Shown piece by piece: positions 1,316 to 20,805 of a stretch of DNA of 64,000 nucleotides. Source of the stretch: Rhizodiscina lignyota (taxonomy: Eukaryota). The number at the start of each line of letters is the position of its first letter. The stretch's first letter is position 1. The notes under the pieces are model-generated. The model did not search any database. It was not told where the DNA came from and was given only the letters and a program-made list of their open reading frames with translations. The DNA is taken from assembly GCA_010015805.1 (NCBI GenBank), contig ML978122.1:372001-436000 (forward strand), in the 5' to 3' direction. Position numbers and translations under genes: made by a program.

Positions 1316-3357
1316 TTACATCCTCGCCAACCCCCTGAATCCGACATTGCCATACACAGGATCAATTGTGACAACCTCCAGACACATTCCAAGCACATGC
1401 CTCGTATCTCGAGGGTCAATGATCCCATCATCCAATAAGTAAGCAGAAGTCTTGTAAACTTCAGAATCTCTCTGCACTTGATCACTGAGCTTTTTGGTTG
1501 AAGCTTTGAGCTCATTTTCATCGACGGCACGGTTTGATCGAGCAGCTGCCCCACGGGCAATTGTCTCCATGACTCCACCCAATTGATCAGGACCCATCAC
1601 TGAGCATCGACTGTTGGGCCAAGAGAAGAGGAATCGAGGGGCGTAGGATCTGCCGCACATTGCATAATTGCCGGCCCCATACGAAGCTCCGCAGACGATA
1701 CTAATGTGCGGAACTGTGCTGGTGCTCACAGCGCCCACGAGCTGCGCACCTTTCTTGATGAGACCAGCTCTCTCAGTCTTGAGGCCAACCATGAATCCGG
1801 TGACATTGTGCAAGAAGACGATTGGGATCCGGCTACAGGCAGCAAGTCTGTTGTCAGATTTCATTCGGGGGAAGAATTTGGAACGGGGAAAAGCTTACTT
1901 CTGATTGCAGAGACGAATAAATTGCGTTGCTTTATCCGCTTCATTGCATAGAATGACTGGATTTTGATTCGCGATGATTCCCGTTAGATGTCCTGATGGT
2001 GTCAGAGAAAGAATATTATGGCAGGAATAGCACTGACCATGAATACGTGCCCACACTGTCAGCATACCCTTTCCAAACTGTGGTTTGAACTGGGACATCC
2101 GAGAGCCATCTACGATGCGCAATGTTACTTCTGTCATGTCCAAACTTTGACGGATGTCTGGGTCAACCAGCCCGAGAATATCCTCCATGTTATACTTGGC
2201 ATCCGAATAGACCGATGCTGTCGTTGGCTTCTCCAACTGTACTTGTGCACAGGAAGTTGTGAGGATCCACTCGCGAGCTTTTCGGATTGCATCAAGTCTT
2301 CAAAGTCTGTGTTAGTGATGCGGAGAGCCAAGGTCTGGACGTGGATGCATACTCATCAACAGCAAGTCCGTCTGAAAGTCCGGTCACCGTGGAATGCATA
2401 GTTGCGCCTCCAAGCGCCTCTGCCTCGACGACCTCCCCAGTTGCCATTTTTACCAGCGGTGGCCCACCCAGAAATACTTGTGCTTGATCCTGAACGAATA
2501 TTGTATAGTCTGACAAGGCTGGGTGGTATGCACCTCCCGCTGTTGAAGAGCCGAAGACAATCGCACAGCTTGGCTGCCCATTTTTGGTTCGGAGGGCGAG
2601 ATCTCGAAATATTTGGCCGCCTTTGTGGAAGACTCGAAACTGTTGGGGAAGAAAGACGCCAGCCTGCAGACAATATTTTGTTAGCGAAGTTGCACAGCTG
2701 GTTAAAAAGTGTCGTCGCAAAGCTTCACTTACGGACTGCACGAGTGCTATTAGAGGTAGATTGTTCTCCGATGCAATTGCCGTAATGCGATTTTGTTTCA
2801 AGACTGGGGATCTGTTAACGTTTGGTTGGAATAGGACTTCCACACCTACCTGTTAGCTCATTCCAAGAACCTCCCTGCAGAGACGGGATGTGTGCTAAAA
2901 TCATGCAGATGACCCCACTGTCAAGAAAGGAGTTAGCCATACAAGATGCATATCGTTTGGGAAGGCAGTTCTCACTTCACTACCCCAATGCCTGCGACCA
3001 AGCTTGCAGAAGGGGATGAGTCGTCCAATTTGTGACCCGCAAACGCGCAGAGCTCTAGAAAAGGAGTATCCGGATCTCGCAGAAGAACAACTCTATCTCG
3101 TGCTGAGTTATGTCAACAAATTGATGTTTTATTTCAGTGGAAACCTTACCAAGGATATGTCGCGCCGTGTGCTTTTCAAGGGCTTTTGCAGACTTCCCTT
3201 CCCGACTTGCCTCAACAGATGCGTCTTCATATTTTTGGATAATGTGCTTCCATTTGACGGAGTTTTCTTCGAACTTAGGTGACTTGACATTGATCTTGCT
3301 AGGTATTCGAGGGAACACGTGTTGCCTTGATGTCGAAGCGAAATTAGGAGTAGCCAT
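1316..3357 (-). CDS. Biotin-dependent acyl-CoA carboxylase, carboxyltransferase (beta) subunit, MCC-beta/AtuC/AccD-like; multi-exon
   Basis: ORF pieces 3055-3381, 2292-2843, 1895-2236 and 1316-1864 carry carboxyl_trans motifs (GSSTAGGAYHPALSD, FLGGPPLVKMATGE, LGGATMH, NVTGFMVG, GASYGAGNYAMCGR, DDGIIDPRDTR). They are separated by GT-AG introns; the C-terminus is ...GLARM. Confidence 0.93.
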
Positions 3358-3584: not shown

Positions 3585-3829
3585 ATCTGAATACCCCGTA
3601 GGAAAAAGGGGTTAGGACTGGGGATGAAAGCGGTCCAAAAAAACCCCCGAATTATATCTTTCGAAGGAGATTTGGGGAAACGCCTTGGTACCTCGTTCTG
3701 TCGGATTCAAATCAATATTCTAAGCCAGTCGCAGTGCACGGCGGTTTTGTTCAACGCGTACAGCTTCACTTTTTCGCTTCACCCAATCGAGAAATACCTG
3801 ACAATATTTCGCACACTGAAATCGAAACC

Positions 3830-5802
3830 ATGGCTATCGAGGACATCCAGCAAAACAGTAATGAAAGGCGCAAAAATTCGACAGCAGTTGCACCAAAACC
3901 GTCTTTCCTTGTTGGGGAAGTCCAGTCACCCCTCTGGGAAATTACACTCACCCAACTTCTTCAGCAACAAGTTCTGTCAAATCCATCTGGCGAATGTGTT
4001 ATTTTTCCAGAGTACAACTACCGGAAAACGTATAATCAGCTGTACCAGACCACCTTAGAGGTTGCCCAAGGACTACGAGCAATCGGCGTTGTCCACGGAG
4101 ACCGAGTTGGAATATTTGCAGGAAATATCCCGGCATATGTCGAACTGTTTTTTGCAGTATCACATGTTGGTGCTGCATATGTGGTTTTCAATACCACTTA
4201 CACACCCAAAGAACTGCAGTCCGCTTTGCAACATTCAGGTAGGCTTCCACTTGAAACTGTGTTAGAGAAACATAGACTTAGAAACAATACTAAATAGGAT
4301 GTAAAGCTGTTTTTGTGGCAACATCAATTGGCAAGACCCAAACTAATGGCATCTTGGATATGTTGAGCAGCAGCAGCCGAAACTCAGTCCTGACTGAACT
4401 GAAGTCTGTCATCTTGCTGAAAGATCAAGCTGGGAGGAATTTCGACACCTATGATCATTTGCGAGAGGCAGGTAAAAGGATTTCAAAGCAGGAACTTTCT
4501 TCCGTCATGGCGTCGAATACCGCAGGCAGTATCTGTAACCTTCAGTTTACAAGTGGCACCACGGGTACCCCAAAAGCAGCAGTGTTGACTCACTTGTACG
4601 TCTTCCATAATGCATGTTAAGAATACAAATACTCATTTTGCATAGGAACATTATCAACAACGGGCGCTTTGTTGGTGATCGAATGCGGCTAACGTCTCGG
4701 GACGTCATTTGTTGTCCTCCTCCGCTCTTTCACTGCTTCGGATTGGTATTGGGCCTTGTTGCTGTTTTCACTCACGGCAGTTGTATAGTATTTCCCAGTG
4801 AGACTTTCCAGCCAGCTTCAGTTCTCAGAGCCGTGGCGGAAGAGCGCTGCACTGGCCTGCATGGTGTGCCAGCAATGTTTTCTGCGGAATTGGAACTTCA
4901 TAAGGCAAACTTGAAATCGATGGATTTCTCATCATTGCGGACTGGGATAGCAGCAGGCTCGCCAGTTTCGAAAAAGATGATGGCGGAGCTGCAAGAAGTT
5001 TTCAACTTAACCGAAGCTACCATAACATATGGTGAGTAAGAGTCTTGCCCTCTTCCACCTGCAGGTAAATAAACTTTGGTAGGAATGACGGAGACGTCGC
5101 CAGCATCGTTCATGTCATTTACGGATGATCCGCTTCACAAACGACTGACAACAGTTGGAAAGATACTCCCACACACTAAAGCGAAGATAGTCGATGTTAA
5201 GGGGAAGGTTGTGCCGGTGGGTACGCGAGGAGAACTCTGCGTCGCAGGTTTCCAGCTCCAGAAGGGATATTGGAGGAATCCCAAACAAACCGCGGAGGCA
5301 ATGCAGACTGATGACGAGGGCTGCCTCTGGATGAGAACAGGTGATGAAGCGATTTTTGATGATGAAGGCTATTGTAGCATCACAGGACGTATTAAAGATA
5401 TTATCATTCGTGGTCCGTCAACACATCATCCCAATGAGAACCGCCAGAGCTGACGCTAGCTATATAGGTGGCGAAAATATATTCCCCTTGGAAATCGAAG
5501 AGAGGTTAGGGCAGCATAAGGCTATAATCCAGTCAAGCGTGGTCGGATTGCCTGATGAAAAGTATGGTGAAGCGGTTTGTGCATTTATTCAGCCACGACT
5601 GTCCGAGCAACTTCCGTCGGCGGAGCGCTTGAGAGACTTCGTAAGACAGACGTTGGGCTGGCACAAAGCGCCCGTGCATATTTTCTGGCTCGGAGAAGGA
5701 GAAGACTTTCCCAAAACAGCAAGTGGGAAGATCCAGAAACATATCTTGAGAAAAAAGGGCCAGCAGAGGCTGAGGTGTATGGCCCGCACATCAAAGATGT
5801 AG
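3830..5802 (+). CDS. AMP-dependent acyl-CoA synthetase (ACSF2/fatty acid-CoA ligase-like); multi-exon
   Basis: AMP-binding motif LQFTSGTTGTPKAA, plus PPPLFHCFG, YGMTETSP across an intron, GELCVAG, RTGD, GRIKDIIIRGGENIFPLEIE and PKTASGKIQK. Ends ...TSKM. Confidence 0.95.
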
Positions 5803-8252: not shown

Positions 8253-9991
8253 CTCGAAGAAGGATGACCGAGCGGGATTGAATGATTCATAGCACAGCCC
8301 CGAAAACCCCTTTAGACTTTGAAATGGTCTTCACTCAACATATTAGCCCACTCTCCGTGCGAGATGTCCCTGTTCAAAGCCACGGTTTGGTGTGCACTTT
8401 AGTACTGAACATTCGGCACTGCCAACGGCGCTATCGACAAAACAAGACGACTTCACGTGCCATGTCAGCGAAAGCTGAACAAGGCGATGGGTAAGCTCCG
8501 AAGCAGCAATACGAAGGAGCATTTCCGATTTTCTAATACGAATGGTTAGCCTTACATTTGCCAAGGAATCCTTCTGCACCGCTTGGTTAGGATAAAAGTG
8601 TAGTGATCTCGCATTTAGCGCATTGGACTTAGCCCCATACGTGCAGGTAGATCGCTATTCTACTCACCAGAGTGCTGCGCAGTCGTTAGCAGAGCTTTTC
8701 GGGTACCTGTGCGTTTTCTATTAGCCAGTGTGAAATGATAATTTGTGCCGTCGACCATTGTTCATACTCTCAAGGCCGGATGTCTAAAATAATCCCTGAG
8801 TTGCGAATATACAACAAAATGCCGAGACCCAATCAGCCAATCTCCTCTTCACTTGTTCGCTCGCCCGCAAAGACAGTAACCATATTGTTCAACGGTGTGC
8901 TCTGGTTCAGGTTTGATTAGAGTAAATCTCTTGCTCGTGAACTCTCTTGAAAACGATAGGGGTTGTAGAGAGCCGGACCTTTTGCTATCGCCGCCTTTTG
9001 CTCGAGCATACATATTCATTAACGCCACGCTTTGCCCTCCATTGCCTTGTATTCCATGTACACGGTCAGTCGCCTCCCCTCTTCGACTTCTATCCCATCT
9101 CCACGCGTAAGCCGCAGCAGCTCGTTCTCTGTGTCGAGATTTGGTGGGCGTGTCTTTACTTGGCGAAGCAGAAGTGGTAGAATCTGGAAGAATGGCCGTG
9201 CTTGATTGTAGGTATTGTGGTTGAGTATGTATAGGCGCAATAGCTATGTGCTGCTAGCTAGGGTTGATCAACGGCTGCCCGTTCGAAGGTAGATCTTTGT
9301 GCTTGCGGCTGAAGGAGGAGGATGAGTTTGAAGTCGCGGCCTCGTGCAGGAGCTTCTGCTGCTGTTACTTTATTGCTATTTTCTTAGTTGCTGCAACGGA
9401 GCGATCAGGAACGGTATCGTAGGCGGCTAAATGCTGGAGAGAGAGTCTTCGGGGTTGACTGGAATGGTGAGATGGAGTGAGAAGTTGGCTGATGTGTCAT
9501 GGAAGGTCAAGGGAGTTGTGGAGGGCGAGGCGAAAGGTTGCGTGTTGAGAAAAAGAGCAAAATAATGGTGGGTGGCCTTGAATTCAACACCACCTCCCCG
9601 CGCTGGCTGAGCCAACTCTTCGCACACCTCCCCTATTGTTGGTAGTGGCCAAGATGATACTATATCGCTTATGTGTAAGGTCTCAAGTAAATTTACCTAC
9701 AGTAGCAAGTAGTGCAGACCTGTGGATGGAAACCTGCCAAACGGATTGGTTGTGGCCATGTACGATGCCAAATGCTTCAGTGGTGGACTGCTAGCTTTAA
9801 ATACCAACTATAACTGATGTTGCGCATGAGAACCTACTAGAGGCGCCTATGCTAGTTGATGGATCATCCTGCAAGTGTTGTATGACAGGCGAACTTTTGG
9901 GAGCATCAAAGCGTAGAGTAGCGTCTTGAAGGCGCAAAAAATAAAACTTAAGATAAAACGACGAAAACGGAGGCATTGTTTGCTCGGCCTA

Positions 9992-10002
9992 GGATTCGAA
10001 CC
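9992..10002 (-). promoter_or_regulatory. Pol III B-box (GGTTCGAATCC) downstream of putative ncRNA copy 1
   Basis: Minus strand GGTTCGAATCC matches the B-box consensus GGTTCRANYCC. The GTTCGAATC core is kept in copy 2 while the flanks differ. Confidence 0.65.
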
Positions 10003-10056
10003 TGTGCGTGCTCACCGCGCAAAAAGGAAGCGCATGGAACCCCAAAAAAAAAAACC

Positions 10057-10170
10057 AAAAAAAACACCTCCCCTTTCGGGGCGAGCAGATAGTTGTACAG
10101 GACAAGTATCTGTAATAACGTTCTCTCTATAGCAATGAATAAACCGCCACAAGGGCGGGTTGAAGGTAGT
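10057..10170 (-). ncRNA. Putative structured Pol III-type small RNA, copy 1 (family not recognised)
   Basis: Terminal stem UACCU/AGGUG; hairpin CCGCC-CUUGU-GGCGG; hairpin CAGAUA-CUUGUCCUGUACAAC-UAUCUG; hairpin CCCC-GAAA-GGGG (GNRA loop on this strand); then T8 (10064-10057). Confidence 0.6.
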
Positions 10171-10474
10171 AAGTATTTAATATAATGGGGGTTAAGAGTC
10201 TCACTGGGGGATAGTATATTTTGGGTTTACGCCGTGCCACTTGTGGCACGCTACCAATCTTACTGAGAGGGGGATTTGAAATTGTATGTATACTCACCAT
10301 CCACCAGTAGATACTCGCCATCTGCAAGTGGATACTTAAAATCATCATCCTGCAAATGTTGCAAACGGAGATGAGCCTCTACGAGAATTATAGCGTAGGG
10401 TAGCGTCTTGAAGGCGGCCAAAAAAAAAAGAGAAAGGAAAGATAAAAACGTAGTGGTGGTGTTGCCCCAGCTCC

Positions 10475-10485
10475 AGATTCGAACT
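10475..10485 (-). promoter_or_regulatory. Pol III B-box-like element (AGTTCGAATCT) downstream of putative ncRNA copy 2
   Basis: GTTCGAATC core at the homologous position, about +165 from the inferred RNA start (about +168 in copy 1). Confidence 0.6.
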
Positions 10486-10523
10486 CAGGGTGATGACTGT
10501 GCAAAAAGGAAGTGGACAGGAGC

Positions 10524-10650
10524 AAAAAAAAGACACCTCCCTTCACCTCAATGTGAAGGGCGAACAGATAGTTGTACAGGACAAGAATCTGCAATTTTAA
10601 GTTCTATAGACTTGGGTTCAAACGCCGCCCGAAGGGCGGGTTGAAGATGT
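10524..10650 (-). ncRNA. Putative structured Pol III-type small RNA, copy 2
   Basis: Terminal stem ACAUCU/AGGUGU; hairpin CCGCC-CUUCG-GGCGG; hairpin GCAGAU...CUUGUCCUGUACAAC...AUCUGU; last hairpin CCCUUCAC-AUUGAG-GUGAAGGG; T8 (10531-10524); AT-rich TTTAAAAAATATTTAT about 14-29 nt upstream. Confidence 0.6.
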
Positions 10651-10926
10651 ATTAGCTGTTTCGATAAATATTTTTTAAAGTACGTACTGGGGGATTGTAT
10701 GTTTTGGATCATGCATGCCACCGTGGCATGCCACCAACTATTGAGAGGGGGGGTATTTGAAACTGTACATATACTCACTGTTCTTAAGACGTACCTGGCA
10801 CCATGCTCCATACAATCCTTGCGCACAGCCCTTAATCACAACCTATGCAGAACATAATATCCTTGTCAAGATTCTCTTTCGATGCACGTTTACTTTTGCA
10901 CATGTGGTGAAGTGCCCTCGTCTTTC

Positions 10927-12312
10927 ATGGCCAGGTCGTCTCTTCGCCCGATGCCACCGCAGCGACAGCGCCGACAGTGCAGCACTTCCTTACGACCACC
11001 CTTACCACCCCACATACCTCCCGGAGTACCGGCGGCAACTCGTGGCCCCGTGGTGGCGAGGCTGCGTGCGACGCATCAAAATGCTTGGCGTAGAGGTTTT
11101 GCTTTCCGGCTCCTCTCCCACAACTCTCTCTTCTCCACGCTCATGCCTCACCCTCTGCGATACAACAACGACGTCCTTTACCAGGCTGGAGTTGGTTTAC
11201 TTCTGCTCTGGCTCGTCATAGCAGATGGCCTCGTCTATATTTCTTTATTTTTTCGGCCCTCCCTAGACCACGCGTGTCACACAGCACGGCCTGAGGCGCC
11301 ACCAAGATCGGAACCACAACAGTGCCCCAAGGTGCATGCACACCACTGCAGATAAGCATCGCAGACGCCTTGACCTTCTTCAAGGCTGCTCGCAATATCC
11401 ACGAGCTCATTCACCCCATTTGCATCGAAGTACGGAGCAGGTATGTTCCTTCATGTCCGAGCCTGGTAAGAGCCGCCTCGCCCACAACTCCGTCAAAATT
11501 GTCAGCACTGAGTGCTTCGCGACCAACAAGATTGATCTGACGACTAGAGCAAAGGCCATATCGCGACGCCACCCTTCGAAACGCGTCTCCTCATGTGCAC
11601 CAAGACGCCAGTCAACAAGCTCCTTAGGCTTCGCACCCCCGGCAGCAAACCGCAGAAGAGGTCAAACACAAATCGACGCAAACGTCTTGCCTGTTCGCAA
11701 CCAGTGGACAAGAAGCTGTGACGACTATAGTCTTTCAGACTGGCCCGTAGTCTCTTTGAGTTGACGTGGTTCCTCATCGAGAGCAGCGACCTTTATCGCC
11801 CACACTCTCAACATGTGCCGCGTCCAGGCGTCGAACATCATGTAGTAAGATATAAACCGGGTAGATCTTGGATCATGGCTAACAAGCGTAGTTCGTATCG
11901 TCGTCTCCATCGGAAAAGATGCAGTCTGAAGACTACTAGCCTCTTGCCTGACACCACGGTCCCAAAGATGAAGCTCTACGCTATCATGCTTCACTTGAAC
12001 AACAGACAGGGCAAACATAGAAGTGCATCTCGTATGTCCATCTTGCAACGGGGTCTCAATGTTTACGCTCGGTTGTCATGAGTGACTGACGATCGTGACA
12101 GCCAAAACGCCGACAATGCAGCGGAGACCATCCAACGAAGACGACAACCATCCTCAAGGAGCACGAGAGCAGCAGGGACGAGACGACACGGTGCCCATCC
12201 CCAACCATATCCTAGTGGCATCATGGACGCAGTCCGAGACGTCCAGTCCACCAAGCATACTACGTCGATCTGGATCAACAGCCTCATGGAAAGTACCAGG
12301 CATAGGAGATAA
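10927..12312 (+). pseudogene. Possible decayed or orphan multi-exon gene
   Basis: Intron-like segments (~11845-11890 GTAAGA...GCTAAC...TAG; ~12032-12100 GTATGT...CTGAC...CAG) link short ORF pieces. No continuous frame or recognisable domain. Confidence 0.3.
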
Positions 12313-12519
12313 GGATGCCTAGGTCGTTGATCACTCCAGGTAAGTAGCCGTTCAGTCTGAGACCCTTGTCTGTAATGCTGATTCGGTCCAGTGACCCGCA
12401 CGCCACAACCTCACTGCGCGGAATCAGCTTCATCCCAGCTCTTCATCCAATAGCCAACATTGAGGCACACACCATGTTCTAGAGTCTGGACACGCTCTCT
12501 TATCCAACCAACGACAACT

Positions 12520-12904
12520 GTTTTAGTTTTGGGCGGGTTTGCGGTCCCGAAAAAGAAAGAAAAACCAGCGATTCTTGTCGATATTTTGTCGACGTCCAAG
12601 GACCGGGCCACCTCCCGGATGCTTTTGTTCTGGCTTCTCTCTGGGCTTCTCTCTGGTGTTGGACTCGGGTTTAGCGGTCCCCGGATACTACCCAGGCTAG
12701 GGTAGTTGTCCAGAAAACCAGCCTGCTTTCTTGTCGATATTTGTCGACGTCCATGGGACCGGGCGCCCTCCCGACTTTCCTTTGTTTGTTCCTTGGTTTT
12801 GGGTTTTTTGGTTTTGGGTTTTGCGGTTCCCCCGTCGTCTGTTGGCTGGGTCGACAGGCGGCGACAAAACGCAGCGATTTTTTTAAAAAAAAAAAACCCA
12901 AAAC
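12520..12904 (+). repeat. Array of three ~130-150-bp units with a conserved scaffold and a variable hairpin insert (third unit truncated)
   Basis: Units start GGGTTT(A/T)GCGGT(T)CCC at ~12535, ~12667 and ~12816, followed by AAAAC(C/G)(C)AGC. Units 1-2 continue CTTGTCGATA(T)TTTGTCGACGTCCA..GGACCGGGC..CCTCCCG. Confidence 0.8.
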
Positions 12905-18895: not shown

Positions 18896-20805
18896 ATGGC
18901 CTCCAACCGGACCAGCTCTGGTGGTGTGCGGTCCCTGCGAGCGATGTTCGAGAATCCGGCAGAGCAAGCCTCGTCGCCGGAGACTCGTGGTCGCAGCCCG
19001 GCGGCAAGCGTCACAAGTAACAGCGAGCGTCCTCTCTCGAAAGTTCGGACTAGCTTCGTCGCTGTGGAAGCTAGTGGGCAGCTCTCGAGGACGCTAAGTC
19101 GCACGGAGAGCCAGCAGAGAGACACAAGTCGAGGTACGTAAACCACTCCATTTACACGGCCGCGAAACCCGACACGAGAGCCCTTCACCACGATCTCTAT
19201 ATTTCATTACACCTTACAGGCACACTTCCCCGTACTTACAGCTTGGACGACGAACATCTTAGAGGCGACAGCCTCCATGCGTGGAAGATGTTCGACAGCG
19301 TGGATCTTAAAATTAGATTCGCTGACTTCTCCCAAGCGGTATCAGAACGATCACAGTCTATTGCCGAAGAACCAACCTCTCAATCGCCCTCTGCCTCCAG
19401 GGCAATTCCTGATGCACCAGAAACACCCGCGCCTCCAATCGAGACAGTCATTGGCAAGATCAGAAAGTTATCAAGCAACAAGGAGTCGGACTCGAACCCG
19501 GACAAGCCAGTTTCGACTGCTGAGGATACGGAAGCAGAGCTTAAGCCTGCGGATCCAAAAGACGAAGCGACAGTTTCTGGAGGTGATGGCCTGTCTCCTC
19601 CACAAGAAAACATTCCACCGCTGGCGAAGATTGCAGCGGAGAAGACAGCAGTGGAAGAATCAGCAAGAGACGAGGTGCCGAAGGAACAAGAGAATGACGA
19701 GCTAGCAATTGCGTCGCCTGAAGCTGTGATTGCAACGCCTTCTCCGGCACCCAAATCAACGCCAGCCAAAGTCAATGGCACCCCTACCCCTACGCGATCA
19801 ATTGGACTTGCGGCGAAAATGACGCCCAAACCCACTCCATCTCCTGCAATTGAGCGACCTTCTCGTCCAACTCCGATTTCTTCTGCGAAAGGCCCACCGG
19901 AACCTACCGAGTCGCTCGAGTCTACGGCGGAGTCTAATCTTCCAGTATCCAAAATGCCAATTACACCTACCTCTCCAACACCTGCGAAATCGATGGCACC
20001 GCCAGCAAGGAGCCCTGCACCAACATCCACCAAGTCCACGACTTCGTACATGAAGCCCACAAGCACGTCTGCGCACCATAACCAGACGAACGGCACCACC
20101 AAGGTCCCACCGCGCCCCTCGTTCCGCAGCTCAACTGCTTCTGTCTCATCCATCACATCAACCACAACAACTGGCACGCGCACAGCAGGCGGCTTCATCA
20201 AGCCTCGTCCCAAGTCGCCCACACGGCCTGTCAAGTTGCCCTCCCATCTCGTTGCGCCGACAGCAAGTAGCGCTGCGAAGCATGATGGTCCAGGGGCCGC
20301 CGGCCCAACCCCATCACTCGGTCGCAAGGCGTCAATCCGCAGTCTTGGGAGCGCAAGAGGCCCGTCCGGTCCGCCGAAGCTGACTATCTCAAGCCGCGAT
20401 CGCAGGCCGAAGAAAGAGGAGGCACGCAGTCCAGTCGCGAGCAAGAGTGCACCAGATGAGAGCTTCTTGGCCAGGATGATGAGGCCGACTGCGAGTAGTG
20501 CGAGCAAGGTTCGCTCTAGGGACGAAGTCCCGCCGGTGCCGAAGGTGAAAATCAGTCCGGCAAAGAAGGTTGGCGCAAGATCGCCGCACGCTGAGCGCAA
20601 GAAGGAGATGGAAGATGTGGCTGAGGCAGTAGATCATGTCAAAGATGAGGAAGATGTCCCGATTGAAGAAGTAGACGAGACGGTAGAAGAGGCTGCACAT
20701 GACATTGAGCCCGCTGCTGCCGAGCCGGAGCACGTGGTCGAGGACCATCCAGAGGACGCGGCAGAAGAGATGCAAGCAGAGGATGTTTTAGCCGTCGAAG
20801 AGTAG
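18896..20805 (+). CDS. Pro/Ser/Thr-rich, largely disordered fungal protein with acidic tail; spliced
   Basis: Exon 1 MASNRTSSGGVRSLRAMFEN...SKVRTSFVAVE with a GTACGT donor at ~19134. Long exon to TAG 20805 contains RPKSPTRPVKLPSHLVAPTASSAAK and SFLARMMRPTASSASK. Confidence 0.85.

Follow-up and report, generated by a model that had tools for sequence, protein, structure and literature searches.

Two tandem copies of a candidate structured RNA

A 64-kb stretch of DNA from Rhizodiscina lignyota (contig ML978122.1, positions 372,001 to 436,000; hereafter the window) carries, on its minus strand, what we suggest are two old paralogous genes for an orphan candidate small RNA, with hallmarks of RNA polymerase III (Pol III) transcription and a layout like that of a U6 gene. 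We put the probability of this reading at roughly 0.4; a small-RNA gene pair is plausible and unproven. The locus is read on the minus strand throughout, and all positions are window coordinates.

Copy A (127 nucleotides [nt]; 10524-10650) and copy B (114 nt; 10057-10170) each include a terminal run of eight T (T8), at 10531-10524 in copy A and at 10064-10057 in copy B, where GG and a run of 11 T (10054-10044) follow it. Folding of each copy gave four helices common to both, a closing stem and three hairpins. A preliminary description of this DNA had proposed a minus-strand pair with the same fold at 10650-10524 and 10170-10057, and we recovered all of its elements: the closing stems, hairpins 1-3, the linker motifs, and T8. 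In the predicted fold, the closing stem pairs ACAUCU with AGGUGU in copy A (10650-10645 with 10538-10533) and UACCU with AGGUG in copy B (10168-10164 with 10069-10065). Hairpin 1 is CCGCC/GGCGG in both copies, with a CUUCG loop in copy A (10639-10625) and a CUUGU loop in copy B (10158-10144). Hairpin 2 (10591-10565 in copy A; 10112-10086 in copy B) has as its core the invariant 21-mer CTTGTCCTGTACAACTATCTG (10565-10585 and 10086-10106). This 21-mer occurs twice in the window, versus 0 occurrences expected, and has no other match there with up to three mismatches; the invariant core reported earlier is thus borne out. Hairpin 3 was rebuilt between the copies, from a 4-base-pair (bp) stem capped by a GAAA loop in copy B (CCCC-GAAA-GGGG; 10081-10070) to a stem of 8 bp closed by six loop nucleotides in copy A (CCCUUCAC-AUUGAG-GUGAAGGG; 10560-10539), and in both it abuts the closing strand.

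The linker between hairpins 1 and 2 (10624-10592 in copy A) carries the motifs CUAUAGA and AGAAC, common to both copies. Described earlier as variable, it is the least conserved part of the RNA but can be aligned between the copies with small indels; its constraint is weaker, but it is not hypervariable. At the base of hairpin 2, and not in a loop, the linker reads AUUGCAG in copy A (10592-10598) and AUUACAG in copy B. AUUGCAG is the heptamer of the U2 stem-loop IV and U1 stem-loop II loops bound by U2B'' and U1A; the likeness is probably a coincidence.

To what extent the substitutions support the fold can be read from the 23 pairs common to both copies. Nineteen are invariant, two are one-sided changes in the closing stem (C-G/U-G), one is compensatory (C-G/U-A, in hairpin 3), and one is an unpaired U-U in copy A (hairpin 2). 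Hence, the "covarying stems" of the preliminary description are overstated; accurately put, the copies have one fold in common and show a few changes in support of it. Of the 46 pair cells, 45 are paired, versus 37-57% after a shift of the partners by 1-3 columns. A two-sequence shuffle control for covariation was powerless (259/500).

Copy A folds better than its shuffles (-40.1 kcal/mol, z = -3.5, 0/200 shuffles), and copy B alone does not (-28.9 kcal/mol, z = -1.44, 19/200). In consensus folding of the two units (RNAalifold, 100 column shuffles), the minus strand of the RNA segment reached z = -3.8, below 100/100 shuffles, and the segment upstream of it reached -3.9 (-4.8 on the plus strand). 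Downstream of T8, the minus-strand z was 0.05, and 49 of 100 shuffles scored no higher (plus strand, -1.4). Because the consensus signal vanishes in this way, conserved structure ends at T8. RNAalifold did propose a conserved hairpin downstream of T8, which we dropped since its segment is no better than shuffles.

The repeated unit is larger than the candidate RNA

Alignment of the flanks revealed that the repeat consists of two tandem units of ~481 nt that can be aligned end to end. The earlier claim of two tandem copies therefore stands, but the repeat unit is this module and not the ~115-nt RNA alone. The conserved module of unit A spans 10344-10778, from GTGAGTATA at 10778-10770 to TTGCAGGATGAT at 10355-10344, and its paralog in unit B spans 9863-10297, from GTGAGTATA at 10297-10289 to TTGCAGGATGAT at 9874-9863. 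The units are identical in 65% of aligned columns, and the identity is patchily distributed. Invariant runs of 21, 17, 15, 12, and 12 nt occur between them; a model of uniform divergence gives P = 0.0012 for at least five runs of 12 nt or longer. Block spacing is preserved within 2 nt across most of the unit, with offsets of 479-483 nt between corresponding blocks. The exception is the region of hairpin 3 and T8 (467-469 nt), where an additional GG-T11 in unit B compensates for a local insertion in copy A.

On the minus strand, the 5' part of each unit runs from GTGAGTATA through TTTCAAAT, a palindromic hairpin, ATCCCCCAGT, and an A/T-rich stretch to the RNA. Within the RNA, the conserved blocks are CTTCAACCCGCCCTT on the 5' side and the 21-mer inside hairpin 2. 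On the 3' side of the RNA follow T8, CTTCCTTTTTGC, GTTCGAATC, a T-rich tract, CGCCTTCAAGACGCTAC with CTACGCT, and TTGCAGGATGAT. The upstream palindromic hairpin, GCATGCCA-CGG-TGGCATGC in unit A (10713-10731) and CGTGCCAC-AA-GTGGCACG in unit B (10233-10250), shows one compensated pair between units, from A-U to G-C. Invariant ATCCCCCAGT lies between this palindrome and the A/T-rich box (10686-10695 in unit A; 10203-10212 in unit B), and invariant CTTCCTTTTTGC comes immediately past T8 (10501-10512; 10019-10030). Block comparison placed two further invariant stretches downstream of T8, in the part that has no conserved structure: CGCCTTCAAGACGCTAC (10416-10400 in unit A; 9934-9918 in unit B) and CTACGCT (10398-10392; 9916-9910).

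The 140 mismatches in 428 aligned columns comprise 66 transitions and 74 transversions. This balance, free of the signature of repeat-induced point mutation (RIP), rules out RIP as the source of the divergence. Given the 65% identity, the patchy invariant runs, and the missing RIP signature, the duplication is old, and the invariant blocks appear to have been under selection.

Two further repeats adjoin the units. At their junction (10290-10336), a 21-nt tandem repeat of 2.2 copies doubles the 5'-splice-site-like GAGTAT, as GGCGAGTATCTAC and then GGTGAGTATACAT. Just downstream of unit B (9586-9640), GGGGAGGTG is present twice more, and one stretch is 70% like the region of hairpin 3 and the closing strand (repeat family D1). 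This segment could be the relic of a third copy; the covariance model of the two copies found no match there.

Pol III signals around the candidate RNA

Runs of at least eight T are rare: the window has six, and four of these lie in the locus. In both copies T8 directly follows the closing stem, so that the RNA has at its 3' end at least the five T expected of a Pol III terminator. Past the terminator, on the RNA strand, lies a B-box. In unit B it is a perfect match to the consensus (GGTTCGAATCC, 9992-10002), 55 nt past T8. The B-box-like AGTTCGAATCT of unit A (10475-10485) lies 39 nt past T8 and matches GGTTCGANNCC at 9 of 11 positions. GTTCGAATC, the core of the consensus GGTTCGANNCC, is identical in both units. 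The B-box lies 165 nt (unit A) or 168 nt (unit B) from the 5' end of the RNA, even though the RNAs differ by 13 nt. Perfect B-box matches number two in the window, versus 0.46 expected. The other one, GGTTCGAGTCC at 19488-19498 on the minus strand, lies inside long open reading frames (ORFs; 19075-20805 on the plus strand and 19380-20633 on the minus strand), and ARAGORN calls no transfer RNA (tRNA) at that site.

Upstream of the RNA, each unit has an A/T-rich, TATA-like stretch: TTTAAAAAATATTTAT in unit A (10664-10679), 14-29 nt upstream of the closing stem, and ATTATATTAAATA in unit B (10174-10186), 6-18 nt upstream of it. A same-strand B-box downstream of the terminator is one feature of a split promoter of the SNR6 type. 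The Pol III assignment of the preliminary description, which had not noticed this B-box, is strengthened by it; "family", its other half, so far lacks support, only these two copies having turned up in the searches described below.

In the passages of PMC9136082 on SNR6, the U6 gene of Saccharomyces cerevisiae, a TATA box is located at -30, an extragenic box B is located downstream of the terminator, and boxes A and B are 202 bp apart. The present units resemble the SNR6 described in those passages in their upstream A/T-rich element, short structured RNA, T-run terminator, and downstream same-strand B-box. Differences from it are an RNA other than U6, the failure to detect an A box, and the uncertain position of a TATA box. 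The spacing of the B-box also differs, at 39-55 nt past the terminator here, whereas that of SNR6 lies ~120 nt from its terminator.

Search for relatives and comparison with known RNAs

A covariance model (R1) based on the two copies recovered both of them in the window, at 151 bits (copy A) and 132.7 bits (copy B). The next match scored 14 bits, and the model detected no third copy in the window. Among public sequencing runs, the one that contains the locus (X1, Logan contigs) is near-identical to the window; at 80% likeness, a single contig of X1 spans the stretch and there is no second place, although short or more diverged copies could escape such a search. The 21-mer had no exact match in metagenome contigs, prokaryote genome contigs, or viral contigs, collections that are no fungal genome set and whose blanks are uninformative on relatives. 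A looser metagenome query, a 15-mer of the core plus T6, returned 13 loci, which we rejected as unrelated by eye and scoring at most 15.4 bits with R1, versus 133-151 bits for the true copies. A full-text literature search with three 14-mers of the core returned no paper. None of the 15 fungal motifs of Li & Breaker 2017 (PMC5640933), as covered by its abstract, outline, and passages, resembles the candidate RNA. The translated ORF across unit B, compared with protein databases for stray ORF calls at homologous loci, gave no candidate.

Known RNA families were likewise missing from the locus. Rfam 15 at gathering thresholds gave 0 matches over the whole window, the outcome that the preliminary description had said would support novelty. 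Permissive Rfam searches, run on 4 kb and on the copies one by one, returned noise (E of 0.29 or worse) well under threshold, with top scores of 15.6 bits for cyano_tmRNA (threshold, 70), 16.4 for Hrs1 (56.4), and 17 for PyrG_leader (65). ARAGORN called 0 tRNAs in the window, and the Rfam tRNA model (RF00005) had no match at E up to 10. The U6 motifs ACAGAGA and AGC are missing from both copies, and there was no Rfam U6 match at E up to 10. Neither copy has a C box (RUGAUGA, at most one mismatch), CTGA, or an ACA near the 3' end, as expected of small nucleolar RNAs (snoRNAs). The Sm site RAU(3-6)GR has no match in either copy, as U8 is preceded by G or C and not by A. These blanks agree with what had been noted from the letters, i.e., no tRNA, C/D box, ACA box, or Sm site. 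Two other candidates were tried and rejected. Telomerase templates gave three one-mismatch matches in the window versus 1.31 expected, no more than chance would give (10 of 100 shuffles reach three), and none lies in the locus. A U1-like 5' end (AUACUUAC, upstream of copy B) lacks conservation in copy A, and Rfam found no U1 match.

Like Y RNAs and vault RNAs, the candidate is ~100-130 nt long, has paired ends with a U run directly after them, and varies in its interior. Unlike them, the candidate has no Rfam Y_RNA or Vault match, and its closing stem of 5-6 bp is far shorter than the Ro-binding stem of Y RNAs. A tRNA also has a closing stem, three hairpins, and a B-box consensus close by. Here, in contrast, the length is 114-127 nt, there is a linker of ~30 nt, the "anticodon" arm has 11 bp, and the B-box lies outside the RNA, past T8.

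Genomic context

Two recognizable genes lie on the low-numbered side of the locus. A methylcrotonoyl-CoA carboxylase beta-subunit gene (1319-3357, minus strand) has introns of ~45-70 nt with CTRAC branch points, and its product shares 98% identity with proteins that bear the names of Pezizomycotina species. An intron-split gene for an AMP-binding enzyme follows at ~3600-5800 on the plus strand. Based on these two genes, with their short introns and the 98% Pezizomycotina identity, the window is of filamentous-ascomycete origin, and the fungal source assumed in the preliminary description is correct. From ~6 to 13 kb (~7 kb), no ORF has a Pfam match. GC content is 52-57% at 10800-12400, versus 44-46% at the RNA locus. 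We considered an ORF at 11725-12075 (minus strand) as an exon of a host gene and set it aside as uninformative: it had only three matches, all to long, odd, repeat-like proteins in which the alignment broke up into many short stretches and the Pfam matches were incoherent. Also within this stretch of few genes, at 12570-12900 (upstream of the locus by 2 kb), there is a second small tandem duplication with a period of ~155 nt, in which GTCGACAAATATCGACAAGAA occurs twice and 35-nt blocks are 74% alike; a T12 run follows at 12885-12896 on the minus strand.

Evidence against a Pol III gene pair and alternative explanations

A number of observations weigh against a pair of Pol III genes. No homologue beyond the two copies was found in the window, X1, or the metagenome, prokaryote, or viral collections. 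No RNA run is listed among the public runs that contain the locus. Over the whole unit, RNAalifold counted 7 compensatory pairs, versus 8.9 (standard deviation 2.3) in shuffled alignments, which is no evidence for covariation. The plus strand folds as well, with z-scores of -2.75 and -3.23 for the copies, and in consensus folding of the RNA segment it reaches -4.6, versus -3.8 for the minus strand. No A box (TRGCNNAGTGG, at most two mismatches, minus strand) lies inside 10057-10170 or 10524-10650, and the B-box of unit A carries two mismatches. The A/T-rich box is only loosely conserved in placement, its distance to the closing stem differing between units. In unit B, transcription of the closing stem would leave it too near for a -30 TATA, so that either the invariant CAAC, further inside, is the start or the box is no TATA of this kind. 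Four invariant blocks lie past the terminator, and the B-box alone is explained, leaving three unaccounted for. Finally, both ends of the unit resemble splice sites.

Because the plus strand folds at least equally well, folding energy does not identify the strand. Four features favor the minus strand: two G-U pairs, the GAAA loop, the T runs, and the orientation of the B-box. In the closing stem, the two differences read as U-G/C-G on the minus strand but as A-C mismatches if the plus strand is taken. The first three of these features had already been taken to favor the minus strand in the preliminary description, and they do.

The splice-site-like ends raise another possibility: a non-coding host transcribed by RNA polymerase II could contain both units as duplicated spliceosomal introns, separated by a 52-nt exon and bearing a structured RNA that is released after splicing or regulates splicing. 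GTGAGTATA and TTGCAG/GATGAT are invariant exactly at both ends of both units, where GTGAGT and TTGCAG agree with the splice-site consensus (5' GTRAGT, 3' YAG), and the GT...AG span is exactly 429 nt in each unit (9869-10297 and 10350-10778) despite 35% divergence. The spacer between the units is poorly conserved, as the exons of host genes are, and conserved blocks continue past T8, as expected were T8 no end. Tandem GTGAGT/CAG-bounded units that enclose a structured element and are separated by a short spacer of poor conservation match the layout of fungal non-coding host genes for intron-encoded snoRNAs. We nevertheless consider introns an unlikely explanation. The last 300 nt of either unit contain no CTRAY branch-point motif, whereas at least five introns of the neighboring carboxylase gene, ~45-70 nt long, carry CTRAC 10-24 nt from the 3' splice site. 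The units are ~6-9 times longer than these introns, lack C/D or H/ACA boxes (with no ACA on the 3' side), and have no ORF running across the putative exons. Introns would also leave the same-strand B-box unexplained, and structure is not conserved downstream of T8. The exact 429-nt match arises despite several internal indels that cancel, and no reading tested accounts for its exactness.

If no stable RNA is made at all, the units might be a duplicated cis-regulatory DNA module, such as a promoter, an enhancer, a TFIIIC-bound insulator, or a nucleosome-positioning element, in which blocks and palindromes would be protein-binding sites. Such a module fits conserved blocks at fixed spacing across the whole 435 nt, several of them palindromic (the upstream hairpin and hairpins 1-3) and folding equally on both strands. 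A lone B-box can be an extra-TFIIIC site, and the flanking 6-13 kb has no recognizable gene. What makes this distinctly unlikely in our view is that hairpin 3 changed its stem length, sequence, and loop yet remains a hairpin, which suits an RNA or DNA structure and not a sequence-specific site. Moreover, the closing-stem changes preserve G-U pairing on one strand only, and T8 abutting the terminal stem in both copies would have no role. A still slimmer chance is that the units are a decaying mobile element, tRNA-derived or otherwise Pol III-related, or else arose by neutral tandem duplication and were patched through gene conversion, with accidental hairpins. The B-box of unit B, in a partial T-arm-like context, could be the relic of a tRNA; tandem copies can swap short patches; and copy B alone folds no better than shuffles. 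Neither ARAGORN nor Rfam detects a tRNA, though, and the unit is not a dispersed repeat, having no further copy in the window or, at 80% likeness, in the contigs of X1. Invariant blocks of 12-21 nt in near-saturated divergence, with spacing kept, are unlike gene-conversion tracts or neutral decay.

A possible mechanism and its implications

If the locus is a Pol III gene pair, each ~481-nt unit would by itself make up the gene of a small, structured nuclear RNA, and selection would have kept both paralogs. The RNA would be read from the minus strand, with its start on the invariant CTTCAAC block or slightly upstream of it (unit A, near 10650; unit B, near 10170; +/-10 nt) and its end in T8. 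Pol III is the likeliest enzyme, with TFIIIC expected on the B-box 39-55 nt past the terminator and TFIIIB on the upstream A/T-rich stretch. The transcript would be ~105-127 nt long and adopt the closing stem and three hairpins, a fold predicted for both copies and weakly supported by substitutions. La binds the oligo-U tails of Pol III transcripts, and the tail beside the terminal stem would be a site for it. The invariant 27-nt hairpin 2 would be the likeliest site of specific contact, whether it binds a protein or acts as an internal promoter element. Our best guess is a protein-bound scaffold RNA. A base-pairing guide is less likely because the linker, the least conserved part, can still be aligned between the copies.

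Known fungal Pol III transcripts are few and comprise tRNAs, 5S, U6, RNase P RNA, signal recognition particle RNA, and a handful of yeast oddities. We tentatively propose that the present RNA may be an undescribed, lineage-restricted addition in filamentous ascomycetes: a ~115-nt, four-helix scaffold of a ribonucleoprotein (RNP), with an invariant hairpin, a U6-like split promoter, and two diverged paralogs. Even if the units are instead introns that lack a branch-point motif, or a TFIIIC-bound DNA module, they would represent strong constraint in a gene desert. If the Pol III gene pair is real, there would be a new RNP to seek in Pezizomycotina and a second natural promoter of the SNR6 type with its B-box past the terminator, a layout that would be practically useful for the expression of short RNAs in filamentous fungi.

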